From an uncultured bacterium (GTDB taxonomy: Bacteria; Desulfobacterota; Syntrophorhabdia; Syntrophorhabdales; JANXAF01): a DNA stretch of 64,000 bases. The stretch spans positions 11,129 to 75,128 of the forward strand of contig CALKEQ010000002.1 in assembly GCA_938084905.1 (NCBI GenBank), in the 5' to 3' direction. The notes below the pieces were generated by a model. It ran no database searches, was not told where the DNA came from, and was given only the letters and a program-made list of their open reading frames with translations. Position numbers and translations under genes: made by a program. Positions 3,691 through 21,057 of this stretch are shown here, in pieces (the stretch's first letter is position 1; each line of letters starts with the position of its first letter).

Positions 3691-3707
3691 AGAGACCCCC
3701 TTTGCTC

Positions 3708-3715
3708 TGTATACA
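3708..3715. promoter_or_regulatory. candidate GntR operator half of a repeated site (TGTATACA)
   Basis: Perfect 8-bp palindrome TGTATACA (context cTGTATACAAt), 18 nt upstream of the CoA-transferase start. It fits the GntR GT-Nx-AC operator rule, and a second copy lies 54 bp away. Confidence 0.35.
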
Positions 3716-3760
3716 ATTTTCCTTCACTATAATACTCGGAGCGGACGATTGTCAAGCTTT

Positions 3761-3770
3761 TTGTATACAA
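3761..3770. promoter_or_regulatory. candidate GntR operator (TTGTATACAA)
   Basis: Perfect 10-bp palindrome in the 178-bp divergent intergenic region. It has the same core as 3708..3715. Confidence 0.35.
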
Positions 3771-3868
3771 TCGCTTTAAGGTTAGTTGAGCACTAGAATA
3801 AGGGAAAAGTGAAATGAGAATACGGGTTTTTACGGATTGATCCCTAAGGAGCATGAGTTACCATATTA

Positions 3869-5953
3869 GTGATGCTTGAGAGAGGAATCAAAAAAACCCA
3901 GATCCTCGATAGAGCCCTCATCCCACCTTGCCAGGATGCGTGCCCCCTCCACCAGGATATAAGGGAATACGTTGACCTTATAGCCCAGGGAAGAATAATG
4001 GAAGCTCTAAAAGTGATAAGAGATAGAAATCCTTTTCCATCAATATGTGCCTATGTATGTCCACATAAATGCGAGGACAAGTGTCGCAGGGGAAGGGTGG
4101 ACAAACCTATAGCAATTAGAGCTCTTAAAAGATTCGCCGTTGAGTTCGGTGGGGACAGAATGGTCAGAAAGGAAGTGGAGGAAAGGTACTCTGAAAAAGT
4201 GGCTGTGATCGGTTCCGGTCCGGCAGGACTTTCCTGTGCTTACTACTTAAGAATTTTAGGTTATCCCGTAACAATATTTGAGGCTTACTCCGAGCCTGGA
4301 GGCATGTTAAGGGTCGGGATACCGGAGTTTAGACTTCCAAAGAAAATGCTCGACTTCGAAATAGAAAGGCTTGTGCAGATGGGTATAGAGATAAGGACAA
4401 ACACCCCTGTCACATCTCTCGATCTACTACTGGAAAAGGGATACAAAGCTATCTTTATAACTGTTGGGGCACATCAGGGAAGAAGGCTAGGGATAGAAGG
4501 CGAGGATGCAGAAGGAGTTATGGATGGGATATCCTTTCTCAGAGAGATAAATCTTGGCCTCAACCCGAAAATCAAGGATCGTGTGATTGTAGTTGGGGGT
4601 GGAGGAGTTGCAATGGATTGTGCGTTAGCCGCAGTACGGCTCGGAGCTAAGAAGGTTGACATCGTCTGCTTGGAAAAGAGAGAGGAAATGCCTGCAGGAA
4701 AGGAGGAGATTGAGTTCTGCGAGGAAGAGGGGGTGAAGATAAATCCAAGTTTTGGAGTAAAAAGAGTTATAAAGGAGGGAGGAAGGGTTGTCGGATTAGA
4801 ACTTGTAAGGTGCGTCTCTGTTTTTGACGAGAAGGGAAAGTTCAATCCAAAATTCGACGAATCGGAAAAAACCGTTATCTACGGAGATATGGTTATTTTT
4901 GCAGTAGGCCAGATGCCTAAAGTACCTGAGGAGTTCAACGTACACGTTGAAAGGGGAGGAACGATAAAGGTTGACCCTGTTACCCTGAGGACTAATAGGG
5001 AGGGGGTCTTTGCCGGTGGAGACGCTGTAACAGGTCCTGCTTCGGTTGTTGAGGCTTTGGCAACTGGTAAAAAGGCGGCAAAAAGGATTGATGATTACCT
5101 CCGCTATAGGTATCCTCTGGAGGAGACAGAAGAGAGACCGAAAATTGAACCGGAAATAAGGCAGAAGACTGTGGAAATGATAAGGAAGATTGAGAGAATC
5201 CAACCACCACTTAAGTCTGTAGAAGAAAGGATAGAAAGGTTTGAGCCTTTTGAGCTTGTTTACGACTGGGAAAGTGCGGTAAGGGAAGCAAAAAGGTGTC
5301 TAAGATGTGGGACAGGTGCTGAAATTTTCTACAAGGAAAAATGCGCAAGTTGCCTCACATGCGTCAGAGTTTGCCCTTATGGAGTTCCAGTTGTTGACGA
5401 GAAAGGTGAGATCGAGATTCCCCCTTCCGATTGTCTTGCGTGCGGCATCTGCGTAAGTGAGTGTCCTGCAAAAGCCATACTTTTGAGAAAGCCTGCGGAC
5501 AGGAGACAGGTAGATTTGGAGATTTCGGCTTTAGCGGGTGCGTCAAAAAAGGATGGTTCTCTCCACATAGTTGGTTTTGCGTGCCACTACGGTCTTTTTG
5601 GAGAGGGCAGTCTCTCTTACCTTTTCAGGACTCCAAAGGAGGGAATTTACATAGTACCGGTTCTCTGTATTGGAAAACTTGAAACAGAACACATACTTAA
5701 AGCATTCGAGCTTAAAGCTCAGGGCGTATTTATAGCCGGATGTGGAGAAGGTAGATGTGCAAGGGAGAACACAGACGCATTTGCAATAAGAAAAGCGGAA
5801 AGGGCAAAAAAGATACTTGAGAGACTCGGTCTTGAAAGGGAAAGAATAAGCGTTTTTACTGCCTCTGAGATGGACATCGAGAAAAAGCTTGAAATGTTCA
5901 TAGAAAGAATAGCCTCAATTATTCTGGAGAGGACCCTCAAGGAGGAGAAATGA
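3869..5953 (+). CDS. GltD/NfnB-like FAD/NAD(P)-dependent oxidoreductase fused to a 2x[4Fe-4S] ferredoxin domain and an MvhD/FlpD-like domain
   Basis: 694 aa. N-terminal Cys cluster (CQDACP...CAYVCPHKCEDKCRRG). Dinucleotide folds VAVIGSGPAGLSCAY and VIVVGGGGVAMDCA. CLRCGTGAE...CASCLTCVRVCPYG...CLACGICVSECPAKA. C-terminal HIVGFACHYG...VPVLCIGKLE...GVFIAGCGEGRCARENTD resembles the Mvh hydrogenase delta subunit. Start is GTG 3869 or ATG 3872. Confidence 0.8.
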   Translation: MMLERGIKKTQILDRALIPPCQDACPLHQDIREYVDLIAQGRIMEALKVIRDRNPFPSICAYVCPHKCEDKCRRGRVDKPIAIRALKRFAVEFGGDRMVRKEVEERYSEKVAVIGSGPAGLSCAYYLRILGYPVTIFEAYSEPGGMLRVGIPEFRLPKKMLDFEIERLVQMGIEIRTNTPVTSLDLLLEKGYKAIFITVGAHQGRRLGIEGEDAEGVMDGISFLREINLGLNPKIKDRVIVVGGGGVAMDCALAAVRLGAKKVDIVCLEKREEMPAGKEEIEFCEEEGVKINPSFGVKRVIKEGGRVVGLELVRCVSVFDEKGKFNPKFDESEKTVIYGDMVIFAVGQMPKVPEEFNVHVERGGTIKVDPVTLRTNREGVFAGGDAVTGPASVVEALATGKKAAKRIDDYLRYRYPLEETEERPKIEPEIRQKTVEMIRKIERIQPPLKSVEERIERFEPFELVYDWESAVREAKRCLRCGTGAEIFYKEKCASCLTCVRVCPYGVPVVDEKGEIEIPPSDCLACGICVSECPAKAILLRKPADRRQVDLEISALAGASKKDGSLHIVGFACHYGLFGEGSLSYLFRTPKEGIYIVPVLCIGKLETEHILKAFELKAQGVFIAGCGEGRCARENTDAFAIRKAERAKKILERLGLERERISVFTASEMDIEKKLEMFIERIASIILERTLKEEK

Positions 5954-6603
5954 TAGTTGCAACAAAAAAACCGATAGAGGAGATTTTAGTAGCTCTGGCT
6001 CCGTACGAGAGCGTTCTCATACTCGGATGCGGAACCTGCGTCACAGTCTGCAATGTGGGAGGTGAAAGGGAGGTCTCCCTTCTCCATTCCGCGTTGAGAG
6101 TTGCAATAGCGAACTCCTTGATGCAGCAAAAAAGATTTCACGAGTACACTGTGAAAAGGCAGTGTGACAGGGAATTTCTTGAGGCGCTAAAGGGAAAGTC
6201 TGAGGAGGTTGATGCGATTCTCTCCCTTGCCTGTGGGGTTGGGGTTCAGGTTCTTGCGGATTATTTCTCCGACATTCCATGTATTCCAGCTGTAAATACT
6301 GTCTTTATGGGTTCATCCTCTACATTTGGAATATGGGATGAAAGATGTGCCGGCTGTGGGGAATGTAGGCTTTATGAGACAGCTGGTATATGTCCTGTAA
6401 CGAGGTGTAACAAGGGGATCCTCAACGGACCATGTGGGGGAGCAAAAAACGGTAGATGTGAGGCAAATAAGGAGATGGATTGCGCATGGTTACTAATATA
6501 CGAGCGCCTACTCAAACTAGACCAGCTTGACCGTATGAGGAAATACTCTCCACCAAGAAATTACGGGAACCTAAAAAGACCGAAAAGGGTAATAATCACG
6601 TGA
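5950..6603 (+). CDS. metV: methylene-THF reductase FeS subunit MetV (copy 1)
   Basis: 217 aa. Cys-rich motifs GCGTCVTVC, CAGCGECRLYETAGICPVTRCNKGILNGPCGG, CEANKEMDCAW. ATGA overlap with the upstream gene. Followed by metF after 8 nt. Confidence 0.85.
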   Translation: MIVATKKPIEEILVALAPYESVLILGCGTCVTVCNVGGEREVSLLHSALRVAIANSLMQQKRFHEYTVKRQCDREFLEALKGKSEEVDAILSLACGVGVQVLADYFSDIPCIPAVNTVFMGSSSTFGIWDERCAGCGECRLYETAGICPVTRCNKGILNGPCGGAKNGRCEANKEMDCAWLLIYERLLKLDQLDRMRKYSPPRNYGNLKRPKRVIIT

Positions 6604-6611
6604 GGTAACCT

Positions 6612-7499
6612 ATGGCTGTCTCACTTTTTGAAGAAAAACTGAACTCTGATAAGTTTGTTGTAACAGCTGAGATCGGCCCACCAAAGGGAACGGATCTGAG
6701 TGAAATGAAAAAAAACATAGAACTACTTAAGGACAGAGTAGACGCACTAAATGTGACCGATCATCAGAGCTCTGTGATGAGGTATCCTTCCCTTGGAGGG
6801 TGTCTTCTCATAAAGGAACTAGGTGGGGAGCCTATCCTTCAGATGACAACAAGGGATAGGAATAGAATCGCCCTTCAGGCTGATCTCCTCTTCGCATATT
6901 CAAGGGGAATAAGGAACGTACTTTGTCTTACAGGAGATTCTGTGGATGTGGGTGACCATAAGGATGCAAAACCTGTCTTCGATCTCGATTCTGTCCAGCT
7001 AATAAGGATGATAAAGACACTTGAGACAGGTGTGGATATGGCTGGTAACAAACTCTCAGGCAAAGTTCAATTCTTTGTAGGTGCATCATGTAATCCTGAA
7101 GCGGACCATATAGAACCCCAGCTAATAAAGTTTGAGAAAAAGGTGAATTCAGGTGCCCGTTTCTTCCAGACCCAGGGGATATACGACGTCACTTTGCTTC
7201 GAAGATTCATGCAGTTCGCGAGGCAGTTTGGGGTGAAGATAATTGCGGGAATAATAGTTCTCTTCTCCTACAGGATGGCCACTTACATGAATGAAAATGT
7301 TCCGGGAGTTAAGGTACCTCCCCAAATCTTGGAGGAGCTTAAAGGCCTAGACAAAGAGGCGGCTTTGAGAAAAGGGATAGACATAGCTGCAAGAACTATA
7401 AGAACGATAAAAGAGGAGAAATTGTGTCACGGAGTTCACATAATGGCAATAGGCAGAGAGCATATAATACCGGAAGTTCTCGAAGCTTCCGGATTGTAA
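6612..7499 (+). CDS. metF: 5,10-methylenetetrahydrofolate reductase MetF (copy 1)
   Basis: 295 aa. VTAEIGPPKG, ALNVTDHQ, QMTTRDRNRIALQADL, NVLCLTGD are typical of MetF from MetVF-type enzymes. Confidence 0.9.
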   Translation: MAVSLFEEKLNSDKFVVTAEIGPPKGTDLSEMKKNIELLKDRVDALNVTDHQSSVMRYPSLGGCLLIKELGGEPILQMTTRDRNRIALQADLLFAYSRGIRNVLCLTGDSVDVGDHKDAKPVFDLDSVQLIRMIKTLETGVDMAGNKLSGKVQFFVGASCNPEADHIEPQLIKFEKKVNSGARFFQTQGIYDVTLLRRFMQFARQFGVKIIAGIIVLFSYRMATYMNENVPGVKVPPQILEELKGLDKEAALRKGIDIAARTIRTIKEEKLCHGVHIMAIGREHIIPEVLEASGL

Positions 7500-7511
7500 A
7501 AAGGAGGAACC

Positions 7512-8294
7512 ATGGAAAATAGAAAGAAAATAATGATCATTGACGATGAAAGGGAGTTCCTTGACGCTTTCAAGAGAACCTTAGAGGCTAGAGATTTCAC
7601 AGTTTTCGTAGCAACGAATAGGCGCGAGGCGGAGGAAATATTACTGAAAGAGGAACCCAATTTCGTTATTCTCGGAACGATAACCCCAAGAGGTGATGCC
7701 TTCCAATTGCACAGGTTCATAAGATCCAATCCTAGGCTTAAAGAGGTTCCCCTAATAATAGTCGATGCTCCTCTTGAGAGGAGGCTAGTTGAAGGATGGA
7801 GTATGGATGAAGGTATTCAGATGGACGCGGATGACTATTTGACGAAACCTATAGAGCCATCGGCTCTCATTCCAAGAATACTTGCTCTTCTCGAGAAGGC
7901 CACAAGAAGGATAAAGGTCCTTATAGTGGATGACCATACCGTTGTAAGGGATGGGATAAAGGTGGTACTCAAGCTTCAGAAGGACATAGAGGTCGTTGGA
8001 GAGGCTGAAAACGGAGAGGAGGCTGTTGAGAAGTGCTTGAGTCTTCAACCTGATGTGGTCATAATGGATATTGTCATGCCGGTTATGAATGGTCTTGAGG
8101 CAGCACGAAGGATTTTAAAGGAAAGGCCTGAAACAAAGGTTATAATGCTCACTCAGTACGACGATGAGGAAAACATCCTCATGGCGGAAAAGATTGGAGC
8201 CTACGGTTTTATTCCGAAAAGATCCGCTTCCGACAAACTTATATCAGGAATAAGACAGGTGTATATGGGTAAGCGACTGGAGCACGCTGCATAG
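7512..8294 (+). CDS. output-less tandem receiver protein (pseudo-REC + canonical NarL-type REC)
   Basis: 260 aa. REC1 has DD and K-P, but Gly (codon 7674..7676) replaces the phospho-acceptor Asp (PNFVILGTITP). REC2 is canonical (PDVVIMDIVMP). No DNA-binding domain. SD AAAGGAGG lies 12 nt after the metF stop. Confidence 0.85.
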   Translation: MENRKKIMIIDDEREFLDAFKRTLEARDFTVFVATNRREAEEILLKEEPNFVILGTITPRGDAFQLHRFIRSNPRLKEVPLIIVDAPLERRLVEGWSMDEGIQMDADDYLTKPIEPSALIPRILALLEKATRRIKVLIVDDHTVVRDGIKVVLKLQKDIEVVGEAENGEEAVEKCLSLQPDVVIMDIVMPVMNGLEAARRILKERPETKVIMLTQYDDEENILMAEKIGAYGFIPKRSASDKLISGIRQVYMGKRLEHAA

Positions 8295-8317
8295 GTATTG
8301 TTCGCTTGTGTAAAAGC

Positions 8318-8329
8318 TGGTAATATAAT
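8318..8329 (+). promoter_or_regulatory. possible internal promoter (extended -10 TGgTAATATAAT) for the kinase/regulator pair
   Basis: TG at 8318..8319 followed by TAATAT (8321..8326) and TATAAT (8324..8329) in the 51-nt gap before the kinase gene. GAGG lies 9 nt before TTG 8346. Confidence 0.3.
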
Positions 8330-8345
8330 TTAGAGGTAGTACATT

Positions 8346-9908
8346 TTGTACAATTTCTTGAATTTCATCGAGGATGAGGCATTCGTTATAAACGATTCTT
8401 ATAACATCACCTTCGCCAATGAGCCCCTGCTCAAGAGGATCCTCTCGGGAGAAGGTAGATGCTTTGAAAGAATAGAGGGAAGGGATTCTCCATGCGGTTT
8501 TCCTCTCTGGGAATGCCCTCTAAACAGGGTTATTCGGGAAAAAAGGTCATTTTCCCTTGTCCACCCCTATCCTTCAAACAACCGACCTGATCCCGTCTAC
8601 GTTAAGGTCTCAATACATCCCATCTCGGAGAATCAGTTTCTAGAAATAAGAAGGGACGTAAGTGCGGAAAGGAAACTGGAGAAACAGGTAATTCTCCATC
8701 ATAACCACCTTGATGCCATAAGCAAAATATCGTCAGCTGTAAGCGGGCTCAAGGATTTAAAAAAGGTATTGGAGATAGCAATTAACACGGTACTCGATAT
8801 ATTCACAGGATCAATAGGCGGAATCATGCTTCTCGATGAAAAGACAAAGGAGCTAAAATACGAGGTTTTAAGAGGTTTGTCGCTTGATGCTTTGGAGGGT
8901 AAAGGTGTGAAGATGGGGGAAGGGATCTCCGGAAAGGTTGCAATGGAAGGGAAACCTCTTCTTATCCCAGATCTGAAAAAAGACGAATTTCCCGGATCTA
9001 CGGTCTACGTTAAGGAGGGGATAAGGTCTCTTATAAGTGTACCTCTGAAAGCAAAGGAGAAAGTACTTGGGGTCTTAAACATAATGAGTAACATTCCAGG
9101 TAGGTTCAATAGGGAGGACATGTACCTTCTGTCTTCAGTTGGTCACCAGCTAGGTGTGGCTATGGAGCAGGCTACTCTTTACGAGAGACTAACAGCTGCA
9201 AGGGAAAGGTACAGAAAACTCCTTCAAGTAGCATTGGCAATTCAGGAAGAGGAAAGGAAAAGAATAGCAAGGGAGCTCCACGACGAGACGAGTCAAAATT
9301 TGACTGCAATTTCTCTTAACCTTCAGGCCATAAAGGAAATGATGGAGGACGAGGGTCTTACACAAGAGGTAAAGGAGCTCATCAGAAAATCCCACTCAAT
9401 AGCAGTTAGCGCAAGTGGAGAACTAACGAGAATAATAAGGGAGTTAAGACCTACCCTACTCGATACCCTCGGACTTCCTGCTGCTATAAATCACCTTGTC
9501 GAGTCTAATTTAAGATCGAGGAACATCGAGGCAGAAGTGCATTTTTCAGACCTTGGAGAAAGGCTTGCGCCCGAAATCGAGCTTGCCCTTTTTAGAATAA
9601 CGCAGGAGGCTCTCAGTAATATCGTGAGACACTCAAAGGCAAAAAGGGCAAGAATAACCTTTAGTTATGATGAGAAGGAGTACAGACTGAGGATAGAAGA
9701 CGATGGTATAGGTTTTAATGTGCAAGAGATTAAGACAATAGAGGAGGGCGGAAGGGGGGCTGGTTTATTCGGGATGAAGGAAAGGGTTAGGCTTGTTGGC
9801 GGACGGTGCCACATAGATTCAGGACCTGGAATGGGAACTCGAATAAACGTATACGTTCCAAGGGCTAAAATGGAAAGTGATGAGGAAGATAAGGGTACTA
9901 GTGGTTGA
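8346..9908 (+). CDS. sensor histidine kinase: Cys-containing PAS-like N-domain, GAF, HisKA_3, HATPase
   Basis: 520 aa with TTG start. GAF region (GGIMLLDEKTKEL...GEGISGKVAMEGKPLLIPDL...LISVPLKAKEKVLGVLNIMS). H-box RIARELHDETSQNL. ATPase boxes (NIVRHSKA, DDGIGF, GGRGAGLFGMKERV). Confidence 0.85.
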   Translation: MYNFLNFIEDEAFVINDSYNITFANEPLLKRILSGEGRCFERIEGRDSPCGFPLWECPLNRVIREKRSFSLVHPYPSNNRPDPVYVKVSIHPISENQFLEIRRDVSAERKLEKQVILHHNHLDAISKISSAVSGLKDLKKVLEIAINTVLDIFTGSIGGIMLLDEKTKELKYEVLRGLSLDALEGKGVKMGEGISGKVAMEGKPLLIPDLKKDEFPGSTVYVKEGIRSLISVPLKAKEKVLGVLNIMSNIPGRFNREDMYLLSSVGHQLGVAMEQATLYERLTAARERYRKLLQVALAIQEEERKRIARELHDETSQNLTAISLNLQAIKEMMEDEGLTQEVKELIRKSHSIAVSASGELTRIIRELRPTLLDTLGLPAAINHLVESNLRSRNIEAEVHFSDLGERLAPEIELALFRITQEALSNIVRHSKAKRARITFSYDEKEYRLRIEDDGIGFNVQEIKTIEEGGRGAGLFGMKERVRLVGGRCHIDSGPGMGTRINVYVPRAKMESDEEDKGTSG

Positions 9909-10524
9909 TGACCACACGATCGTTAGGGATGGTATAAAAACTCTTCTTGCCTTAAGCTCGGATATTGAGGTTGTTGGGGAGGCTGAGAACGGTCTTGAAG
10001 CCCAAAGAAAAGTAGGTGAGCTTAAGCCCAATGTGGTCCTTATGGACATATCTATGCCTGGAATAGATGGGATTGAGGCGGCGCGAGCAATAACATCCAA
10101 ATTCAAAGATGTAAAGGTGATAATGCTCACTCAGTACGAAGGAAAGGAAGATGTTCTGGAGGCGATAAAGGCGGGAGCAAAGGGTTTTATAAGTAAGAAG
10201 GCAGCCTCCACAGAACTTGTCCAGGCAGTAAGGGCAGTATCATCAGGAGGTGCGTACTTCTCTCCAGGTGTTGCAAAGATCTTGATGGATGAATGTATGG
10301 ATCTTATTAAAGAGAAGGCGCCCCATGAGATCCTCACACCGCGAGAGATAGAAATCTTAAAGCTCATAGGGGAGGGTTACTCTGACAAAGAAATAGCTCA
10401 GATCCTTTTTCTCTCTCCAAGAACAGTTGAGACGCATAAGGCTAAAATAATGGAAAAGCTCCACCTGAGAAAAAAGGTGGAGCTTATAAAATACGCTATA
10501 AAGAAGGGGATCGTTAAGCTCTAA
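9877..10524 (+). CDS. NarL/LuxR-family response regulator (REC + HTH)
   Basis: 215 aa. REC with PNVVLMDISMPGIDG. C-terminal LTPREIEILKLIGEGYSDKEIAQILFLSPRTVETHKAKIMEKL. Overlaps the kinase 3' end. Start is GTG 9877 or ATG 9880. Confidence 0.9.
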   Translation: MMRKIRVLVVDDHTIVRDGIKTLLALSSDIEVVGEAENGLEAQRKVGELKPNVVLMDISMPGIDGIEAARAITSKFKDVKVIMLTQYEGKEDVLEAIKAGAKGFISKKAASTELVQAVRAVSSGGAYFSPGVAKILMDECMDLIKEKAPHEILTPREIEILKLIGEGYSDKEIAQILFLSPRTVETHKAKIMEKLHLRKKVELIKYAIKKGIVKL

Positions 10525-11444
10525 AATTTAGGTCTTGGATAAAGACCTGCAGCCTGGACGATCTCGGGTACAGTCTCCTCCCACTCAATTGCCATTATGT
10601 GGACACCAGAAACCCCTTTTATCTCTTTGAGCTGATTTATTATATCGACACATATTCTTATCCCCTCTTTAGGTACCTGATCCTTAGGAACACCCTGAAG
10701 TCTCGTTATGATCTCGTCTGGAACATCCATCCCTGGGATCTTCGTTTTCATGTATTTTGCAGCACCCACAGACTTTATAGGCGCCACACCTGCAAGTATT
10801 TTTACCCTCTCATGGAGCCCGAGATCCCTTATTCTTCCCATCCACTCCTTAAACTTCTCAACGTTATAGACTATCTGGGTCTGTATAAAGTCTGCACCAG
10901 CTTCTATTTTTTTCTTCAGTCTTAAGACCCTGAATTCAAAAGGGTCAGCAAATGGGTTCTCAGCTGCTCCTATGAAAAGTCTCGGTTCGTAAGAGATTGG
11001 CTCTCCATTTTGAAATTTTCTCTCGTCCCTCATGTCCTTAACGATTTTTATCAGCTGGACAGAATCCACATCATAGACACCCTTTGCCTGAGGATGGTTT
11101 CCAAACTTCTGGTGATCACCTGTCAAGCAAAGAACGTTGTTTATACCAAGGGCCGCAATACCTAGTATATCCATTTGAAGAGCTATCCTGTTCCTGTCGC
11201 GACACGTCATTTGAACAATTGGATCTATCCCGTACTCCTTTCCAATCAGGCACGCAGCCCAGCTCGCCATTCTCACAACTGCCGTCTGACCGTCTGTTAC
11301 GTTGAAGGCATCAACGTATCCTGAAAGAACTTTTGCCTTCTTCCTTATAACTTCAGGATCTGCGCTCTGGGGAGGTCCAATCTCTGCAGTAACGGCAAAA
11401 TTCCCTCCCTCCAATACTCTTTCGAGATTACTTCTCGTTTTCAT
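10521..11444 (-). CDS. metF: 5,10-methylenetetrahydrofolate reductase MetF (copy 2)
   Basis: 307 aa. VTAEIGPPQS, AFNVTDGQ, QMTCRDRNRIALQMDI, NVLCLTGD. By eye roughly half the residues are identical to copy 1. Its stop codon overlaps the stop of the convergent regulator gene. Confidence 0.9.
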   Translation of the reverse strand: MKTRSNLERVLEGGNFAVTAEIGPPQSADPEVIRKKAKVLSGYVDAFNVTDGQTAVVRMASWAACLIGKEYGIDPIVQMTCRDRNRIALQMDILGIAALGINNVLCLTGDHQKFGNHPQAKGVYDVDSVQLIKIVKDMRDERKFQNGEPISYEPRLFIGAAENPFADPFEFRVLRLKKKIEAGADFIQTQIVYNVEKFKEWMGRIRDLGLHERVKILAGVAPIKSVGAAKYMKTKIPGMDVPDEIITRLQGVPKDQVPKEGIRICVDIINQLKEIKGVSGVHIMAIEWEETVPEIVQAAGLYPRPKF

Positions 11445-11454
11445 CTCCTACCTC

Positions 11455-12102
11455 CTAGAACCTTTTTACTGGTGGACCCGCAACAAGACTCACACTCCAG
11501 TCCTTTGGAGGAACGATCTTCTCCATTTTCTCGAGCCTTCCCAACTCCTTGAGCCTCTCGTAGATTAGGTGCCAGACACATGGGATTTCAGGGTCTACCT
11601 CACACTTTTTTCCCTGGGAGCCACCGCAAGGACCATTTAAGAGATGTTTTGAGCACCTAGATATGGGGCAGAGTCCTCCTGTGTATTCGAGGACGCAATT
11701 CCCACACTCCATACATCTTTCTGCTCCCTTCCATTCCGCATGGCCCCCTCCTGAGGAGACGGTATTACAACCTGGATGAACCATCTTTTTTACTAGCTCG
11801 GAGACAACCTGGACTCCGGCGCCGTCTGTGAATACAAGGATAGAGTCAGCCTCATCTATCTTTTTCTTGTAGTTTTTCAGCTTTAAGGCGGCAAGGGCTT
11901 TGTCGCAGAGCATGTCCACAAGAGCATACCCGGTCACAATTTTTCCACTTTCCTCAAGCCTTCTCTTCATTTCGATTATCTCTTTTTCCCCTCCACTCTC
12001 CCATCCTTCCGCACATCCCCTACATCCGACGAGAAAAACTTTACTCTCTCCATTAAGATAGCCCATTATCTCTTCAAAGGGTTTCTGTTTTGAGATAAGC
12101 AT
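11455..12102 (-). CDS. metV: methylene-THF reductase FeS subunit MetV (copy 2)
   Basis: 215 aa. GCRGCAEG, CMECGNCVLEYTGGLCPISRCSKHLLNGPCGG, CEVDPEIPCVW. Lies 12 nt after the hydrogenase large subunit and 10 nt before metF2. Both gaps contain GGAGG-type SDs. Confidence 0.85.
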   Translation of the reverse strand: MLISKQKPFEEIMGYLNGESKVFLVGCRGCAEGWESGGEKEIIEMKRRLEESGKIVTGYALVDMLCDKALAALKLKNYKKKIDEADSILVFTDGAGVQVVSELVKKMVHPGCNTVSSGGGHAEWKGAERCMECGNCVLEYTGGLCPISRCSKHLLNGPCGGSQGKKCEVDPEIPCVWHLIYERLKELGRLEKMEKIVPPKDWSVSLVAGPPVKRF

Positions 12103-12114
12103 CCCTTTCCTCCT

Positions 12115-13674
12115 TTATATAATACGAAAGACCTTTCCTTCCTTTCCGCGTGCATCTATTATGTGGATCGAACAGGCAAGGCAAGGGTCAAAGGATCTGA
12201 TCACTCTAACAATCTCAAATGGATTTTTCTCGTCTTTAACCTTCACTCCAATTAGTGCCTGTTCCATAGGACCTGGCTGGTCTTTATCGTCCTTTGGAGA
12301 AATATTCCATGTTGATGGGCTGATTACCTGGTAGTTCTCGATCTTCTTCTCTTTTATCTTTATCGCATGGCACAGCGCACCTCTAGCAGCCTCAACGAGT
12401 CCTATTCCTTCTGACTCATTAGGGATCTCGTAGGGAATGTAACTCGGTTCTCCGATCTTAAGGCTCAAGACCCATTCCTCCATTGCCTCTGCTAGAAGCT
12501 TAGTTTCTAAAGCCCTTGCAAGATGCCTTCCCATTGTGGAGAACATGTCTTGAGGCTTTAAGCCTACTTCGGATAATGCCCCATCTATAAGTTCTTTTAC
12601 CTTTTCATTCCCGTCTGCGTAATTGACCATCATCCTCGCAAGTGGACCAACCTCATAAACCATACCATCGTACCTTGGGGACTTGAGCCAGGAGTAAGCG
12701 AGAGACTTTTGAGCAACTGGAGCGGTAACCCCTTCCGTTGGATTTCTTCCGCTTGATGAGTCTTCGTAGAAAGAGTATTTCACATACTCGGCTATCTTTT
12801 GAGGATCAATCTCCTCATACTTGAGGCTTAAGGAAGTTCTACCCGCCTTGTGAAACCTCTTTCTTTTGATAAGATTTTTCTCTTTTCCATCAAGGTCGTA
12901 AGCTCCGTAAGAGAGAACCCTCCCGCATCCTTTACCGATCTGGAAGTAATCAGAATAAACCTTTGCGAGAGCAATAACATCCGGAATGTAAAAGTTCTCT
13001 ACGAAATCTCTGATTTCCCTTAATCTCCAAAGAAAATTTGAAATGCTGTCCACAGTTGGTACTGAGGCAACACCTCCTGGAAGCACACCCACATTATGAG
13101 GCATCTTCCCTCCGAAGATGGCCACCATCTCTTGCCCCTTCCTTCTCATGTGAAGGGCCTTTACATAGTGACTCACTAAAGCCTCGTTGATTTTGTCCGG
13201 AAGTCTGTAATCCCCTTCGTACCTCGGGACAAAAGGACCGAGCTCCCCCCTCTTTATGAAGTTCTTGATGGACAGAAGATCCTGATCATCTCCTTCGTAG
13301 TCCTTTATCCTTGTCACATCCACATAGTCTAGTGCACAGAGATGGTAAAAGTGGAGAATGTGGTCTGAAAGCTCTGCAGCACCAAGAATAAGATTCCTTA
13401 TGATTCTTCCATTATCTGGGATTTTGTCATCTATTCCAAAGGCACTATCCAGGTTCAATGCGGATGCCACTGCATGCGGAGCAGGACATACACCGCAGAC
13501 TCTCTGTGTGATTCTCTGGGCATCCCTAGGATCCCTTCCCTTCAGTATTATCTCCAAACCTCTAAAGAGCATACCAGAGCTTTTAGCATCGGTGACCACA
13601 CCATTTTCGATCTCCACTTCCACCTTTAGGTGGCCTTCTATCCTTGTAAGAGGATCTATTACTATCCTTCCCAT
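12115..13674 (-). CDS. [NiFe] hydrogenase large (catalytic) subunit
   Basis: 519 aa. N-terminal RIEGH and RVCGVCPAPH (RxCGxC). C-terminal DPCLACSIH followed by a 15-aa tail, the substrate of a maturation endopeptidase. Confidence 0.92.
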   Translation of the reverse strand: MGRIVIDPLTRIEGHLKVEVEIENGVVTDAKSSGMLFRGLEIILKGRDPRDAQRITQRVCGVCPAPHAVASALNLDSAFGIDDKIPDNGRIIRNLILGAAELSDHILHFYHLCALDYVDVTRIKDYEGDDQDLLSIKNFIKRGELGPFVPRYEGDYRLPDKINEALVSHYVKALHMRRKGQEMVAIFGGKMPHNVGVLPGGVASVPTVDSISNFLWRLREIRDFVENFYIPDVIALAKVYSDYFQIGKGCGRVLSYGAYDLDGKEKNLIKRKRFHKAGRTSLSLKYEEIDPQKIAEYVKYSFYEDSSSGRNPTEGVTAPVAQKSLAYSWLKSPRYDGMVYEVGPLARMMVNYADGNEKVKELIDGALSEVGLKPQDMFSTMGRHLARALETKLLAEAMEEWVLSLKIGEPSYIPYEIPNESEGIGLVEAARGALCHAIKIKEKKIENYQVISPSTWNISPKDDKDQPGPMEQALIGVKVKDEKNPFEIVRVIRSFDPCLACSIHIIDARGKEGKVFRII

Positions 13675-14538
13675 TTATACCTCCTTCGGAAATTGGGCTT
13701 CTTCTATTTTCACGTAAAGGGGTGAAACTTCGTCAAGGAAACCTTCTGAACAGCATCCTATACATGTGGATCCACATCCGACGCACCAGTTGACCTTGCC
13801 ATTCCAAAGTCTAATTGGACAATCGGCGTATGTTACTGGACCTCTACATCCAAGTTCGTAAAGGCAGCCAGGATCACCGAATTTCTTTGCAAATTTCTTT
13901 TCATCGTAATAGGCCCTTCTTGGGCAGTTTTCATGTATTGTCTGAGAAAAAAAGAGCTTTGGTCGACGAAGTTCATCAAGATCCTCCTCTTTCGGAAGTC
14001 CAAATAGCAAAACACTTGCGACTGTTCCAACGAACCAGTCAGGATGGGGAGGACATCCGGGGATATTTATATAAGGTGTTTTTATTCCGTATTCCTCAAG
14101 AACCTCCCCGACCGATTTGCAACCTGTTGGGTTGGGATTCCCCTTCGGTATACCTCCGAATGATGCACAGGACCCAAAAGCGATAACACAAAGGGCTGAA
14201 GAAGATAGATCCAAAATCCAGGAGAGCATAGTTATCGGTTTTTTGTCCCTTTCCCCAATAACCCCGTATATTCCATTATCCTTCGTGGGAATTGCCCCTT
14301 CGACGATCAAGACGTATCCCTTTTCCCTTTTAGTACTTGATAGAACCTCAAGGATTGCCTCTCCCTGTCCTGCCATTATGTTTGGATGGAATCTGAGATT
14401 CACATGTTTTTCTGGGACTACCTCGTCTATTAACAAATTTTTGATATTCGGGTAATCTGCGTTGAGGACCGAGATGGAGCAACCCGTGCAACCTGCAGCC
14501 TGGATCCATATTGCAGGAAGCTCAGTTACTTTTCCCAT
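13675..14538 (-). CDS. [NiFe] hydrogenase small subunit, no twin-arginine signal (cytoplasmic)
   Basis: 287 aa. Proximal-cluster Cys (AAGCTGCS, GSCASFGG, PGCPPHPDW). Medial/distal motifs (HENCPRR, GCLYELGCRGP, CPIRLWN, WCVGCGSTCIGC). The N-terminus MGKVTELPAIW has no RRxFxK. Confidence 0.92.
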   Translation of the reverse strand: MGKVTELPAIWIQAAGCTGCSISVLNADYPNIKNLLIDEVVPEKHVNLRFHPNIMAGQGEAILEVLSSTKREKGYVLIVEGAIPTKDNGIYGVIGERDKKPITMLSWILDLSSSALCVIAFGSCASFGGIPKGNPNPTGCKSVGEVLEEYGIKTPYINIPGCPPHPDWFVGTVASVLLFGLPKEEDLDELRRPKLFFSQTIHENCPRRAYYDEKKFAKKFGDPGCLYELGCRGPVTYADCPIRLWNGKVNWCVGCGSTCIGCCSEGFLDEVSPLYVKIEEAQFPKEV

Positions 14539-14582
14539 TTTTTCCTCCTTTAGACTGGTTGAATTACCTGGACGGCCGTCAA

Positions 14583-14612
14583 ATGTTATGCCACGTGGTG
14601 GTTTTTTGTCAA
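14583..14612 (-). promoter_or_regulatory. sigma70-like promoter of the hydS-hydL-metV-metF operon (TTGACA-N18-TAACAT)
   Basis: On the reverse strand, TTGACA lies at plus 14607..14612 and TAACAT at plus 14583..14588. The spacer contains the palindrome CCACGTGG (14591..14598). The palindrome GACGGCCGTC (14571..14580) lies in the predicted leader. SD AAGGAGG at 14544..14550. Confidence 0.4.
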
Positions 14613-14645
14613 GAAAAATGTAAAAAAAAGAACTATAATAGAAGA

Positions 14646-15740
14646 GTGGGAACTTGTATCCTTTGCGGAAAAACCGGGAAAGATATCTCCTCTTTCCTCC
14701 GTCTATGTAAAGCCTGTATCATCACAAAGGAAAATGAGTCTTATACCTTGATACAGATGGCCCACAGAGAATCGAGAAAGAGATTCGGCCTGCCTGAAGA
14801 ACCGCCAAAATCTGAAGGTGGTATTAAGTGCGCAATGTGTGTAAACGAATGTAGAATCGGTGAAAATGAGAGGGGATATTGTGGGTTAAGGGAAAGGATC
14901 GGAAATACCTTAAGTTACATGAAGGATTTTGCCAGTCTCCACTTTTACTACGATCCCCTTCCCACAAACTGCGTAGCGGACTGGGTCTGTGCTGGCGGAA
15001 CAGGAAGCGGATATCCTCAATTCTCCTACAGGAAGGGACCCGAATATGGATACAAAAATCTGGCAGTCTTCTTTCTAGCATGCTCTTTCAACTGTCTTTT
15101 CTGCCAGAATTGGCACTTTAGACTTGAAACAAAAAAAGGGATAAAATACACGAAAGAGGAACTTCTCCAAGCTATAGACGATAATACATCTTGCATCTGT
15201 TTTTTCGGTGGAGATCCTTCCTGTCAGCTTACGTACGCAATAGATTTTTCAAAACTTGCCCTTCAAAGGAAAAAAAACAAAATACTTAGGATCTGTTTCG
15301 AAACTAACGGCTCAATGGACCCTAATCTCCTCGATAGCGCCTTCCAAATTTCGCTTGAGAGTGGAGGTTGCATAAAGTTCGATTTAAAGGCCTACGATAG
15401 AAGAGTTCACGAGGCACTGACCGGATTCGGGAATGAAAGAACCCTCGATAACTTCCTTCGCGTTGCAAAAAAGTCGAAACTTCGACCAAACCCCCCTCCT
15501 GTTGTTGCAAGTACGCTAATTGTACCGGGATACGTGGAGGAGGATGAAGTGGCCTCTATAGCCAGGTTCATAGCTCAAATAAATCCCGATATTCCTTATG
15601 CGCTTCTGGCCTATTACCCTCACTTTCACATGAAGGACCTCCCCTTCGTGACAAGGGAAATGGCTAATAGATGCCTTGAGGCTGCAAAGAGGGAAGGTTT
15701 AAGAAAAGTAAGAGTTGGAAATGTCCATCTAATCGTTTAA
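14646..15740 (+). CDS. radical SAM enzyme, PflA-like (AmmeMemoRadiSam-type signature) with N-terminal CxxC...CxxC extension
   Basis: CSFNCLFCQNWHF (CxxxCxxC with the FCQNW signature) and the upstream KCAMCVNECRIGENERGYCGLRE cluster. The start is uncertain: GTG 14646 (6 nt after TATAAT 14634..14639) or ATG 14757. The track start, TTG 14511, would overlap the hydrogenase gene and its promoter. Confidence 0.75.
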   Translation: MGTCILCGKTGKDISSFLRLCKACIITKENESYTLIQMAHRESRKRFGLPEEPPKSEGGIKCAMCVNECRIGENERGYCGLRERIGNTLSYMKDFASLHFYYDPLPTNCVADWVCAGGTGSGYPQFSYRKGPEYGYKNLAVFFLACSFNCLFCQNWHFRLETKKGIKYTKEELLQAIDDNTSCICFFGGDPSCQLTYAIDFSKLALQRKKNKILRICFETNGSMDPNLLDSAFQISLESGGCIKFDLKAYDRRVHEALTGFGNERTLDNFLRVAKKSKLRPNPPPVVASTLIVPGYVEEDEVASIARFIAQINPDIPYALLAYYPHFHMKDLPFVTREMANRCLEAAKREGLRKVRVGNVHLIV

Positions 15741-15753
15741 CCTAATCTTTTCT

Positions 15754-15787
15754 TTGACAGTTGACTTAAAAGCCGATAGCCTATAAT
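15754..15787 (+). promoter_or_regulatory. sigma70-like promoter, apparently leaderless geometry
   Basis: TTGACA 15754..15759 and TTGACT 15761..15766, then perfect TATAAT 15782..15787. GTG start 15796 lies 8 nt after the -10 with no SD. Confidence 0.45.
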
Positions 15788-15795
15788 CTAATTCC

Positions 15796-16968
15796 GTGAG
15801 GGAGAGAGCAAAGAAGCTACTTGAGGAGATAAGAAAAGAGGGAAATTACAGAACCATAAGGTACGTAAAGCCTCTATCGGAAACTAAGATCCTCTACAAC
15901 GGAAGAGAATATCTAAATCTCACTTCAAATAGCTACCTTTCATTACATTTCCATCCCGAGATCGTAAGTTTCGCAAAGGAGGCTCTTAGTAGTTACGGTG
16001 TTGGATCTTGCTCATCTAGGAGTCTTTCAGGAAGTCTCGATCTTTTAAGAACCCTGGAGAGAGAATTTGCCCACTTTAAAGGTTACAAAAGATGTCTCGT
16101 CTTCTCGTGTGGATTTATGGCAAACATGGGGATTCTACCAGCTATCACCACACCTGACGATGTTATATTCACAGACGAATTGAACCACTCTAGTCTCATA
16201 CACGCAATAAGGCTCTCTAAGGCAAAAAAAGTGATTTACAGGCACAAGGATCTCGACCATCTGGAGGACTGCATAAAGAGGGAGATAAGAGGAAAGAAAA
16301 AGGGGTTTATAGTAACTGAGAGTATATTCAGCATGGATGGAGACATAGCTCCGCTAAAAGAGATCCTCCTCTTAAAAGAGAAATACGGTCTATATACAAT
16401 AGTAGATGATGCCCATGGTACGGGAGTTTTTGGGCAGAGTGGATCTGGAGTTGAGGAAGAGTTGGGAATTAAAGGTTCAGCTGACATCCATATGGCTACC
16501 TTCGGAAAAGCTTTAGGTTCATATGGAGCGGCCGTTCTTTCAGAACCTTACACCATAAGACTTCTTGTGAACAGGGCAAGATCCTTCATGTACACAACAG
16601 CTCTTCCTCCTTCAGTTATTGCCGCATCGATAGCCTCCCTTAATTTTTTAAAGAGGAACCCAAAAGTAATAAGGGAGCTTTGGGCAAACGTTGACTACGT
16701 TAGGGAGAGGCTTTCATCACTCGGCTTTGACCTCAAAGACAGTAGAGGACCAATCGTGCCTATAATTGTTGGGAGCGATAAGATGGCATTGAAGCTTCAA
16801 AGAATGCTCATGTCAAAGGGCCTTTTTATACAGGCAATAAGGCCTCCAACAGTTCCCCCAAATACATCGAGACTCAGGTTTACAGTTGTAAGAGGATACA
16901 CGAAAGAAGAGTTGGACTACATAGTAGAGACCCTTTACACTTCCGCAAAAAAATTGGGCATTATCTGA
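15796..16968 (+). CDS. alpha-oxoamine synthase family, 8-amino-7-oxononanoate synthase-like (BioF/Kbl/SPT family)
   Basis: 390 aa. LNLTSNSYLSL, DELNHSSLI, DDAHGTGVFG and the PLP-lysine context ATFGKALGSYGAAV. No other bio genes in the window, so substrate specificity is not assigned. Confidence 0.75.
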   Translation: MRERAKKLLEEIRKEGNYRTIRYVKPLSETKILYNGREYLNLTSNSYLSLHFHPEIVSFAKEALSSYGVGSCSSRSLSGSLDLLRTLEREFAHFKGYKRCLVFSCGFMANMGILPAITTPDDVIFTDELNHSSLIHAIRLSKAKKVIYRHKDLDHLEDCIKREIRGKKKGFIVTESIFSMDGDIAPLKEILLLKEKYGLYTIVDDAHGTGVFGQSGSGVEEELGIKGSADIHMATFGKALGSYGAAVLSEPYTIRLLVNRARSFMYTTALPPSVIAASIASLNFLKRNPKVIRELWANVDYVRERLSSLGFDLKDSRGPIVPIIVGSDKMALKLQRMLMSKGLFIQAIRPPTVPPNTSRLRFTVVRGYTKEELDYIVETLYTSAKKLGII

Positions 16969-16969
16969 T

Positions 16970-18682
16970 TTAATTATGCTCCTTTTCCGATCTTATTGCT
17001 TGAATTTTTTCCTCGATTGCCCTTGAAGCCTTCTGCCAGCCCTTTTCTTTATAAACCCTCTTTATAAACGAAAGAACATTAAGTCTCTCAGGATTCATGG
17101 GATCGAAGGAAGAATAGAAGTCTTCAACTTCAAATAGGAATCTGAGGGACTTCCCATAAATCCCAACTGCAGAGTAGAATTTTCCCATCTCGGTCCTTAG
17201 ATAAAGACTGAATGGATACTCCCTGTAGGCTTTCAGCAGAAGATCTTCCGCTTTATCTCTTTTTCCAGCCCTAAAAAAAAAGTTCGCTATTTCCACGTAA
17301 AGTTTTACGTCCCTGTTCATTTTGAGGGCCCTCATGTACAGTTCCCCAACGGTTCTAAAGGCTCCCTCATCCTCTATCCCCTTTATCTTAAGGGCAGAGT
17401 CTAAAATGCGGGCCATAATCAGAGGGGGCTCATCGCAAAACCAGCAAATTTGACTTGATAAAAGAAGGGTGCTGAAGCCCTCCTCAGGCTTTTGCCTCCT
17501 TATCGATTCAATTCCCCTTTTTGAGAGAAGATCTCCTAACATGGGAAGGATTGAAAAAAACAAAAGGTAGAAAAGGAGCACAAAAATGAACCACCTTTTT
17601 GCAAGGGAAATGGAAAAAAGGCGATTTCCTTTCGCACAGTAAGCACAAAGGGATAGAAAAAGGACTTGGAAGGCCGGAGCGGGGAAATTGTACTCGAACA
17701 GGTTTGGCAAAAGGAAAGATACGAGAGTCATCTTTGAAATCAGAGAAGAAGTTGGATCACGGAGTGTAACGTACAAAAAGGAGGCAAATAGGAAAAAACC
17801 AAAAATTCCGAGTTCGAGAAGAACGTTAAAAAAGATATTGTGAGCGTGGACATGGCCATGTCCAAAAAGGTTCAAAATAGGATCAGAAATCTTATCCCCA
17901 ATGTAATAAAATGAGTTCATACCGTATCCAAAAAAGGGTGCTCCCGAGAGAAGATAGGGATAGGCTCTGAACTTACTCCATCTGTCCGTCGTTAGCCCTT
18001 TTTCCACAAAGTCGTAGCTAACTGGGAGGAAACCCTCTCTTACTTTCAAAAAAAGGACGAAAAGAAGAAGACCGAGGGCAAGGAGAAAAAAAAGGGCTTT
18101 TAAGTCTTCATACCTTTTCCTTTTCGCCAAGTAAAGAAGTACGATGAAGGTACAAAGAAAGGTAGAGTATGTCCCACCTCTAGAACCGGATAGCAAAATG
18201 GAAAAGAAAAGGAATGGGATCAAATAGCCAATAATACTCATCTTTTTTTCGAGAAATAGGCTTATAGCTAAAAATAGGACTGGTGCAAGGAAGCCGGCGT
18301 AAGGGTTCCTGTTGTAAAAAAGGCCCTTTGCCTCTCCAAAGAATCCTTGAAAGAAACCGAATATGCAGTTTACGATTCCAGAGATTAAAATTGCGTAAAG
18401 TACGTACCTCAAAAGATTCTCCCTAGAGCGGAGAAGGGTTAAAAAAAGTGCACCTCCAATTAGGGCCTGGGAAAAAAGGATCGCACCCCATTTTGAGGGA
18501 GCCCAAAGTGAAGAAACCAGGGAGTAGATGGCGAAGAGAAAGTAAATCAGTGAGTCGAGCTGAATTACAATTTGGCGAAAGAAAAGGGTAAAAGAGAAAA
18601 AGGAAAGGAGAAAGAAGATACTTATTCCCCACTTCGGCGAAAAAAAGCCTCCTAGAATCCCGGAGAAAAAAACGAGGATCAT
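16970..18682 (-). CDS. O-antigen ligase-like (Wzy_C) polytopic membrane protein with C-terminal TPR-like domain
   Basis: 570 aa with more than 10 predicted TM segments. Wzy_C-type motif HGHVHAHNIFFNVLLELGIFGF. Soluble helical-repeat C-terminus of about 170 aa. Confidence 0.7.
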   Translation of the reverse strand: MILVFFSGILGGFFSPKWGISIFFLLSFFSFTLFFRQIVIQLDSLIYFLFAIYSLVSSLWAPSKWGAILFSQALIGGALFLTLLRSRENLLRYVLYAILISGIVNCIFGFFQGFFGEAKGLFYNRNPYAGFLAPVLFLAISLFLEKKMSIIGYLIPFLFFSILLSGSRGGTYSTFLCTFIVLLYLAKRKRYEDLKALFFLLALGLLLFVLFLKVREGFLPVSYDFVEKGLTTDRWSKFRAYPYLLSGAPFFGYGMNSFYYIGDKISDPILNLFGHGHVHAHNIFFNVLLELGIFGFFLFASFLYVTLRDPTSSLISKMTLVSFLLPNLFEYNFPAPAFQVLFLSLCAYCAKGNRLFSISLAKRWFIFVLLFYLLFFSILPMLGDLLSKRGIESIRRQKPEEGFSTLLLSSQICWFCDEPPLIMARILDSALKIKGIEDEGAFRTVGELYMRALKMNRDVKLYVEIANFFFRAGKRDKAEDLLLKAYREYPFSLYLRTEMGKFYSAVGIYGKSLRFLFEVEDFYSSFDPMNPERLNVLSFIKRVYKEKGWQKASRAIEEKIQAIRSEKEHN

Positions 18683-21026: not shown

Positions 21027-21057
21027 AAAAAATCATGGCGGGGATTTTTCCCCCGCC
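21025..21057 (-). terminator. rho-independent terminator after the tandem pilin genes
   Basis: Reverse strand reads GGCGGGG-gaaaaat-CCCCGCC followed by atgATTTTTTTT. Stem arms lie at 21037..21043 and 21051..21057, and the T-tract corresponds to the plus A-run 21025..21032. Confidence 0.6.

Follow-up and report, generated by a model that had tools for sequence, protein, structure and literature searches.

A hydrogenase–MetVF operon in an uncultured Syntrophorhabdales bacterium as a candidate hydrogen-linked methylene-tetrahydrofolate reductase

The electron donor of the MetVF-type methylene-tetrahydrofolate reductases (MTHFRs), and the energy coupling of the step that they catalyze, the most exergonic of the Wood–Ljungdahl pathway, are open questions (PMC8760232, PMC9430772). 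Electrons enter these enzymes through MetV from varied partners, and four MTHFR types are currently distinguished, namely MetF alone, MetVF, MetVF with RnfC2, and MetVF with HdrCBA and MvhD (the Müller-lab scheme), while membrane Rnf–MetVF or Ech–MetVF couplings have been hypothesized (PMC8760232). Whether a [NiFe] hydrogenase might be such a partner is the question raised by a stretch of 64,000 nucleotides from an uncultured bacterium of the Desulfobacterota (Syntrophorhabdales; GenBank assembly GCA_938084905.1, contig CALKEQ010000002.1, positions 11,129 to 75,128 of the forward strand), hereinafter the window. On its minus strand, genes for the small and large subunits of a hydrogenase (hydS, hydL) are followed directly by metV2 and metF2, and an original prediction made from the letters of the window had proposed that their products form a direct H2:methylene-tetrahydrofolate (methylene-THF) oxidoreductase. 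Our analysis supports this candidate as far as sequence evidence reaches: we posit, with a probability of roughly 0.6, that hydS-hydL-metV2-metF2 encodes one soluble cytoplasmic enzyme system that would pass electrons from H2 to 5,10-methylene-THF. For this system we infer a physical HydSL–MetVF complex with direct cluster-to-cluster transfer, operating in the uptake direction. The operon and its promoter candidate are made up of the following features:

14583..14612, minus strand: sigma-70-like promoter candidate (TTGACA, 18-nt spacer, TAACAT) in a divergent intergenic region of ~100 nt
13675..14538, minus strand: hydS, hydrogenase small subunit (287 aa; PF01058 and PF14720)
12115..13674, minus strand: hydL, hydrogenase large subunit (519 aa; PF00374, E 4e-155; NCBIfam NF033181, 720 bits, cut-off 600)
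11455..12102, minus strand: metV2 (215 aa; PF12225, E 2.5e-34)
10521..11444, minus strand: metF2 (307 aa; PF02219, E 2.7e-44)

The gaps between the four genes are 0, 12 and 10 nt, with the hydS stop codon directly abutting the hydL ATG, and the four ATGs are preceded by Shine–Dalgarno sites reading AAGGAGG, GGAGG, AGGAGG and GAGG...GGAG; the originally described layout matches the coordinates of the open reading frames (ORFs). In a consensus scan, the promoter candidate is the best site of the region with 10 of 12 consensus matches, and it is to be read as a consensus match only, promoter-like matches in the region being at chance frequency (7 found against 6.3 expected from shuffled sequence). 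Its −35 block is kept as TTGACA in two related loci (L081, L082) and reads ATGACA in a third (L083). The scan agrees with a single upstream promoter-like site and returned no terminator-like site on the minus strand within the operon, including the hydL/metV2 junction. An Rfam scan of 3500..16000 matched no family, i.e., no riboswitch. Annotation of the ORFs with Pfam and NCBIfam confirms that no gene for a cytochrome b, HoxFU-type diaphorase, HdrABC or MvhD lies inside the operon, but an MvhD-domain protein, to which we return below, is encoded 4.6 kb away on the opposite strand.

As to the kind of hydrogenase, the best PDB matches of both subunits are periplasmic [NiFeSe]/[NiFe] enzymes of Desulfovibrio and Desulfomicrobium (E 1e-139 for HydL and 9e-76 for HydS), while the Mvh, Frh, NAD-reducing (5xf9) and Mycobacterium smegmatis 'Hydrogenase-2' (Huc) chains are far weaker matches. 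The Huc chains, which we take to represent group 2a, reach E 5e-65 with HydL, where the group 1a enzymes reach 1e-139. Judged by its nearest PDB and NCBIfam matches, HydSL is of the group 1a/[NiFeSe]-like sequence type. An Mvh/Vhu-like (group 3c) identity is ruled out by scores far under the NCBIfam cut-offs (VhuA model, 114 bits against 800; VhuG, 28.5 bits against 450). HydL carries the motifs RVCGVCP and DPCLACSIH, both invariant in the family alignment, with cysteine rather than selenocysteine at both active-site positions, and ends in a tail of 15 residues after DPCLACSIH (after His504; IIDARGKEGKVFRII); the RxCGxC and DPCxxCxxH signatures and the 15-aa tail of the original prediction can thus be read directly from the protein. 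From this tail and the protease genes described below, we predict that the tail is removed by an endopeptidase. In HydS, all 12 ligand positions of the iron–sulfur (FeS) clusters are present: C17, C20, C124 and C162 for the proximal cluster, C240, C252, C259 and C262 for the medial one, which with its four cysteines resembles that of the [NiFeSe] enzymes, and H202, C205, C225 and C231 for the distal one. These positions are 100% conserved across the clade, except for C252 at 70%.

The location of the enzyme can be deduced from the N-terminus of HydS, residue 6 of which aligns to residue 7 of the mature small subunit of Desulfomicrobium baculatum (1cc1_S) and to residue 42 of Desulfovibrio vulgaris 2wpn_A (317 aa, the other deposited chain of that enzyme having 283 aa). 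An in-frame extension of hydS upstream of the ATG at 14538 is impossible, which leaves no hidden signal peptide. As the ORF cannot be extended and the alignment starts at the mature N-terminus, it is exactly the twin-arginine translocation (Tat) signal peptide that is missing in HydS, in line with the lack of an RRxFxK signal noted originally. The HydS C-terminus is short and contains no transmembrane helix that could serve as a membrane anchor. Taken together, the missing Tat signal, the intact ligands, the HydL tail and the maturation genes in the window argue that HydSL is a catalytic, soluble, cytoplasmic hydrogenase of periplasmic ancestry.

To what extent the association with metVF is a property of this type of hydrogenase was addressed in a survey of one genome per GTDB species, which furnished 80 related loci annotated by tblastn and ORF calling. 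Tat signals were called by a regular expression followed by by-eye correction of five loci, L005 and L037 being false positives from non-coding sequence and L048, L051 and L075 false negatives with RK/KK-type signal peptides. Counting signal-less loci with at least 1.5 kb of downstream sequence, metV and metF lie beside the hydrogenase in 42 of 42, as against 0 of 27 signal-bearing loci. The gene order is hydS-hydL-(protease)-metV-metF in 39 of the linked loci, while three loci from Anaerolineae have metV immediately ahead of hydS, with metF on the downstream side. The hydL–metV distance is bimodal, at 10–62 nt in 13 loci, the type to which the window belongs, and 450–950 nt in 26; in sampled loci the wider spacing is filled by an ORF with HycI/HybD-type protease motifs. 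This ORF family, which was recognized by motif within the clusters and has its Pfam evidence (PF01750) from the window homologue, is found in 25 of 43 linked loci. The linked loci are labelled as Dehalococcoidia, Anaerolineae, Actinomycetota, Aerophobetes, Spirochaetota, Phycisphaerae, Pirellulales, Bipolaricaulia, Hebobacteria, Armatimonadota, Omnitrophota, Thermotogae and a delta-proteobacterium, i.e., about a dozen phylum-level labels, all of them uncultured lineages in the sample examined. The original prediction had called for a search for the synteny in other genomes, with uniqueness to this one as a point against it; by these counts it does recur, and the hydSL–metVF linkage exceeds a local accident.

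HydL itself belongs to a large family of closely conserved 519-aa homologues with 64–87% identity from metagenome-assembled genomes labelled Desulfobacterota, Dehalococcoidia and Chloroflexota. In a neighbour-joining tree the linked HydL proteins form one clade with the signal-bearing enzymes outside, save for L026, L031 and L055. These three loci have the order hydL-hydS, their HydS carries a Tat signal and is membrane-anchored at its C-terminus, and metVF is missing. They are nested inside the linked clade, which may be an artefact of the tree or mean that these enzymes went back to the periplasm secondarily. The closest relatives with available gene context, L081 (HydL 81% identical) and L083 (74%), share the four-gene operon of the window down to its 12-nt spacing. 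The wider neighbourhood of L081 is also that of the window, while L083 is without a second MTHFR locus or an MvhD gene within 10 kb. A 3.2-kb contig deposited as Candidatus Bathyarchaeia (L084) encodes a HydL identical to that on the 35-kb L083; its archaeal label is probably a binning error, as the L083 genes are bacterial (a class A penicillin-binding protein, FtsH and TilS).

Which of the two MTHFR subunits goes with the hydrogenase is suggested by their co-variation. Over the 38 loci in which the four proteins are complete, pairwise distance matrices (Mantel p = 0.0005 throughout) give correlations of r 0.89 for HydS–HydL, 0.86 for HydS–MetV and 0.79 for HydL–MetV, as against 0.43 for HydS–MetF and 0.33 for HydL–MetF. 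Moreover, the linked MetV is always nearer to the MetV2 of the window than to MetV1, the product of a second metVF pair in the window, whereas the linked MetF resembles MetF1 in 30 loci and MetF2 in 7. From these correlations and the mixed MetF types, it would appear that MetV diverges together with the hydrogenase while MetF is exchanged, and such co-travelling fits MetV as the subunit that contacts HydS.

The proteins themselves are in keeping with a MetVF-type enzyme. With metV2 directly upstream of metF2, the pair has the sequence features of that type, and residues 7–300 of MetF2 cover positions 2–287 of the 287 of PF02219, as expected of a full-length TIM-barrel flavoprotein; its identity to the MetF1 of the same window is 44%. 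Eight cysteines of the C-terminal domain are invariant in 52 MetV sequences, among which the hydrogenase-linked versions constitute a separate group and are the only ones with an invariant Trp124. In the MetV2 subclade, Cys34 is replaced by Trp and Cys93 by Asp, while C27, C30 and C66 stay invariant; hence, the cluster of the N-domain may have been lost or become Asp-ligated. For comparison, two [4Fe4S] clusters have been measured in the MetV of Clostridium ljungdahlii (PMC8760232). MetV has no sequence relatives in the PDB. An AlphaFold2 model of MetV2 (mean predicted local distance difference test score, 71) is confident in the N-domain and poor in the Cys-rich C-domain, and a Foldseek search with it against the PDB recovered just generic alpha/beta (periplasmic-binding-protein-like) matches, which are uninformative on docking. 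We propose that MetV2 is the adaptor to HydS.

Other possible partners were sought by clustering all ORFs in the 8-kb flanks of the 43 linked loci. MetV and MetF are present in 43 of these, HydS and HydL in 42 each and the protease in 25, with no other consistent family. Wood–Ljungdahl genes accompany the module in subsets of the 43 (folD in 9, fhs in 8, acsB, acsC and cooC in 7 each, and acsE in 5). L003, for example, has the order acsB-acsC-nuoE-nuoF-cooC-hydS-hydL-hycI-metV-metF, followed by a GltD-like/formate-dehydrogenase fusion. This fusion (12546..16595 of L003, 1349 aa) joins a [2Fe2S] domain, a GltD-like flavoprotein and a molybdopterin formate-dehydrogenase catalytic subunit within a cluster for CO dehydrogenase/acetyl-CoA synthase (CODH/ACS). 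There is no conserved cytochrome, HoxFU-type set or ferredoxin gene across the 43 loci, nor does the operon or any conserved neighbour supply the cytochrome b/c partner or anchor that serves as a group 1 criterion. MvhD-like segments occur in 6 and GltD-like ones in 8 of the 43, such that the clade is not consistently paired with another redox partner, an eventuality that the original prediction had counted against itself.

Taken as a whole, these observations suggest the following path. H2 would be split at the [NiFe] site of HydL, and the electrons would run along the HydS wire from the proximal via the medial to the His-ligated distal cluster. From there they would enter the FeS clusters of MetV, which would replace the cytochrome partner of the exported relatives, and finally reach the MetF flavin, where methylene-THF would be reduced to methyl-THF for the methyl branch of the Wood–Ljungdahl pathway. 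With E0' values of −414 mV for H+/H2 and ~−200 mV for methylene-THF/methyl-THF (PMC8760232, PMC4320612), the calculated standard driving force is ~214 mV or ~−41 kJ/mol. By the Nernst equation, the H+/H2 couple shifts to ~−266 mV at 1 Pa H2 and ~−236 mV at 0.1 Pa, and between these pressures ~−13 to −7 kJ/mol remain, i.e., the reaction comes near equilibrium. At such pressures, which are those of low-H2 sediments, methylene-THF would be the sole Wood–Ljungdahl acceptor that H2 could still reduce unaided, and little energy would be wasted.

Several points weigh against this proposal. Co-transcription and complex formation are deduced from gene order, and co-inheritance of neighbouring genes could also yield part of the distance correlations. 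Natural fusions that join a hydrogenase subunit to MetV or MetF were found neither in the 80 related loci nor among the top 120 MetV homologues. The HydS clade has no specific residues near the distal cluster, the expected docking site, and its net charge equals that of the exported relatives; its sole signature is an insertion of about 6 residues at about 42–47, in the loop at 38–47. An uncoupled enzyme would waste ~41 kJ/mol at high H2, which argues for a coupling partner or for low-H2 niches, and a bifurcating variant therefore stays under consideration. Finally, an MvhD-containing flavoprotein is encoded nearby in the window and in a minority of the other genomes.

Of the alternatives, the one that survives best, though we consider it unlikely, is that HydSL and MetVF are co-regulated and physically uncoupled, with a diffusible ferredoxin, flavodoxin or thioredoxin between them and the operon reflecting a shared regulon. 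The lack of fusions in the sets searched and the undetected change in the docking surface around the HydS distal cluster would both suit such a carrier, and purified MetVF enzymes do accept reduced ferredoxin in vitro (PMC8760232). Yet the module has no conserved carrier gene, ferredoxin cannot, by established thermodynamics, be reduced by low-pressure H2 unaided, and both the 42/42 linkage and the tracking of HydS by MetV rather than MetF exceed what co-regulation needs.

The nearby flavoprotein raises a further alternative, less probable than a free carrier, in which HydSL is part of a larger bifurcating assembly, docking via an MvhD domain on a GltD/HdrA-like flavoprotein in the manner of MvhAGD on HdrABC and delivering electrons to methylene-THF as well as to a low-potential acceptor such as ferredoxin or NAD(P). 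The relevant genes constitute a second MTHFR locus (3869..7499, plus strand):

3869..5953, plus strand: fusion of a GltD/NfnB-like FAD/NAD(P) domain, two [4Fe4S] domains and MvhD/FlpD (694 aa)
5950..6603, plus strand: metV1, its start overlapped by the 694-aa fusion gene
6612..7499, plus strand: metF1, following metV1

The layout of this locus, 4.6 kb from the operon on the opposite strand, recurs unchanged in L081 and in a similar form in L053. In the ORFs scanned at 827..18682 no HdrB/HdrC (CCG) domain was detected, the longer ORFs below 827 and at 18717..21872 lying outside the scan. We would read the locus as a compact variant of MetVF that is linked to NAD(P)H. Given an adjoining MvhD-fusion flavoprotein with its own MetVF, a larger assembly is conceivable in the genome of the window. 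The same layout in L081 is favourable to it, as are three Anaerolineae loci (L015, L016 and L062) in which hydSL is flanked immediately by metF on one side and, on the other, by a giant HdrA/GltD-like gene with MvhD and metV, and bifurcation would save ~41 kJ/mol at high H2. On the other hand, the low counts of MvhD-like and GltD-like genes among the linked loci speak against such an assembly, as do the lack of both within 10 kb in L083 and the hydrogenase being group-1-like rather than Mvh-like (the VhuA score of 114 against 800 bits). Furthermore, the fusion gene of the window belongs to a separate, oppositely oriented operon that already has a MetVF of its own. Of similarly low probability is a broader version, in which HydSL–MetVF is a fifth MTHFR type, widespread among uncultured anaerobes of the subsurface and of sediments, that serves as the physiological entry point for H2 into the pathway at nanomolar concentrations. 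It would also conserve energy by flavin-based bifurcation to ferredoxin, either at the flavin of MetF or by way of an MvhD flavoprotein.

A little more doubtful again is that the same complex works mainly in reverse, with methyl-THF oxidation being vented as H2, in the course of oxidizing methyl groups or acetate, while a partner organism keeps H2 extremely low. The four cysteine ligands of the medial cluster are compatible with this, [NiFeSe]-like enzymes with an all-[4Fe4S] wire being good H2 producers, and many of the host lineages, such as Dehalococcoidia, Bipolaricaulia and sediment Planctomycetota, are proposed to be fermenters or users of the oxidative pathway. The H+/H2 couple also approaches −236 mV near 0.1 Pa H2. 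However, reversal at equal substrate and product is calculated to need H2 below ~1e-7 bar, which is below typical sediment levels, and the clustering with CODH/ACS and formate dehydrogenase suits reductive use equally. Lastly, a regulatory H2 sensor (HupUV/HoxBC-like, group 2b) steering metVF through the adjoining two-component genes is very improbable and was rejected, for although sensors likewise have a small subunit without a signal peptide, and response-regulator and kinase genes flank the operon and recur near the module in 11 of the 43 loci, HydL keeps the C-terminal tail that sensor large subunits lack, a dedicated protease is in the cluster in 25 of the 43, the affinity is to the catalytic group 1a and not to group 2, and the kinases have GAF or cyclic nucleotide monophosphate (cNMP)-binding domains (the latter inside the cluster in L005 and L062) and no PAS domain such as the HoxJ kinase carries; the argument by which the enzyme was originally held to be catalytic therefore stands.

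The soluble catalytic enzyme that we prefer would require maturation, and the window encodes the following candidates for this:

38205..38666, plus strand: HycI-family hydrogenase maturation endopeptidase (PF01750, E 7.5e-32)
61337..64000, minus strand: [NiFe] cofactor maturation operon, hypF (C-terminal part, running off the window)-hypC-hypD-hypE

The protease is 35–46% identical to those encoded between hydL and metV in related loci and is the probable processing enzyme of the HydL tail, an assignment drawn from this likeness. It lies 24 kb from the operon, where an AAA_22 gene directly precedes it and type IV pilus/type II secretion genes adjoin it; the operons of L081 and L083 are likewise without a protease gene. 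In the maturation operon, HypD is recognized by PF01924 at E 3e-143 and HypE by its AIRS and AIRS_C domains, while the last ORF is presumably HypF, from its NDGGIALGQ end, and another presumably HypC, from its MCLGIP start.

Some other neighbours of the operon deserve mention. Divergent from hydS, a radical-SAM gene and a class I/II aminotransferase gene (14511..16968, plus strand) form a pair that is conserved only in the closest relative. The radical-SAM protein resembles the AmmeMemoRadiSam and glycyl-radical activase models only weakly, in every case under the cut-off, and its listed TTG start at 14511, which overlaps hydS, is probably too far upstream, as the L081 homologue has 365 aa. 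Between the two MTHFR loci (7512..10524, plus strand) are genes for a double-receiver response regulator, a GAF-HisKA_3 kinase and a LuxR-type regulator, the stop of the last overlapping the convergent metF2 stop by 4 nt. Farther away, FeoB is apparently split into three ORFs (50304..52117, minus strand), with the FeoB_N G-domain at 51569..52117 and Gate pieces at 50904..51482 and 50304..50843.

If the proposed enzyme system is real, it would name an electron donor for many uncultured Chloroflexota, Planctomycetota, Bipolaricaulia, Omnitrophota and others, and offer a four-gene target that can be directly expressed and assayed. It would also provide a rationale for the use of H2 at the very low pressures of sediments, where H2 no longer reduces NAD+ or ferredoxin. 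In evolutionary terms, a periplasmic-type group 1 hydrogenase would have become cytoplasmic when it lost its signal peptide, and would have gained a new partner. This affects how the genes are read, as metagenome surveys would score a signal-less HydSL as a respiratory uptake hydrogenase. Should the reading as a bifurcating fifth type hold, the long-standing puzzle of how energy is coupled to the pathway's most exergonic step would be solved for these lineages.

Among known systems, the structurally characterized enzymes 1CC1 (Desulfomicrobium baculatum) and 5JSU/2WPN (Desulfovibrio vulgaris) share with HydSL the ligand sets, including the four-Cys medial and His-ligated distal clusters, and the large-subunit tail. 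HydSL differs from them in the missing Tat signal, cysteine in place of selenocysteine, the 6-residue insertion and the metVF partners instead of cytochrome c3/b. The nearest functional analogue is the hydrogen-dependent CO2 reductase (HDCR) of Acetobacterium woodii and Thermoanaerobacter kivui, in which, as is established, a hydrogenase is wired by FeS subunits to a Wood–Ljungdahl enzyme with no carrier between them; HDCR combines an [FeFe] hydrogenase with a formate dehydrogenase and has no sequence relationship to HydSL or MetVF. In the MvhAGD–HdrABC complex of methanogens, a cytoplasmic, signal-less [NiFe] hydrogenase reaches its partner oxidoreductase through an FeS adaptor, as proposed here, but that hydrogenase is of group 3c, its adaptor is MvhD, for which the HydSL operon has no gene, and the complex bifurcates at the HdrA FAD. 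A precedent for MetV-like hydrogenase adaptors comes from the [NiFe]-hydrogenase gene cluster Ech1 of T. kivui, two products of which are small FeS proteins that resemble the N-terminal part of MetV (PMC4320612). Unlike HydSL–MetVF, Ech1 is a membrane-bound group 4 enzyme with no MetF in its cluster.

The same net reaction, from H2 and methylene-THF to methyl-THF, is carried out by membranes of Sporomusa ovata; there, a periplasmic, Tat-exported hydrogenase anchored by cytochrome b feeds a quinone and thence an Hdr/MvhD-type MTHFR in an energy-conserving manner (PMC9430772), whereas the HydSL operon encodes neither signal peptide nor cytochrome nor membrane subunit. The type IV (Moorella thermoacetica, S. 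ovata) and type III (A. woodii) MTHFRs resemble the present system in having a MetVF core with a co-clustered electron-input module, which is HdrA or RnfC2 with NADH in those types and would be HydSL with H2 here; the hdrA, hdrB, hdrC and mvhD genes that define a type IV metVF cluster are absent from the hydSL-metV2F2 operon. Type II MetVF (C. ljungdahlii, T. kivui, Eubacterium callanderi) shares a MetV (PF12225, 8 Cys) adjoining a MetF (PF02219, FMN) and, as here, has no pyridine-nucleotide site; its physiological donor is unresolved (PMC8760232). We found no description of a hydSL-metVF module in the literature searched, subscription journals possibly excepted. Unlike in type II, metVF here shares an operon with a complete [NiFe] hydrogenase as an obvious candidate donor, and we accordingly put hydSL-metVF forward as a candidate fifth, H2-linked MTHFR type, apparently undescribed and assembled from known modules.

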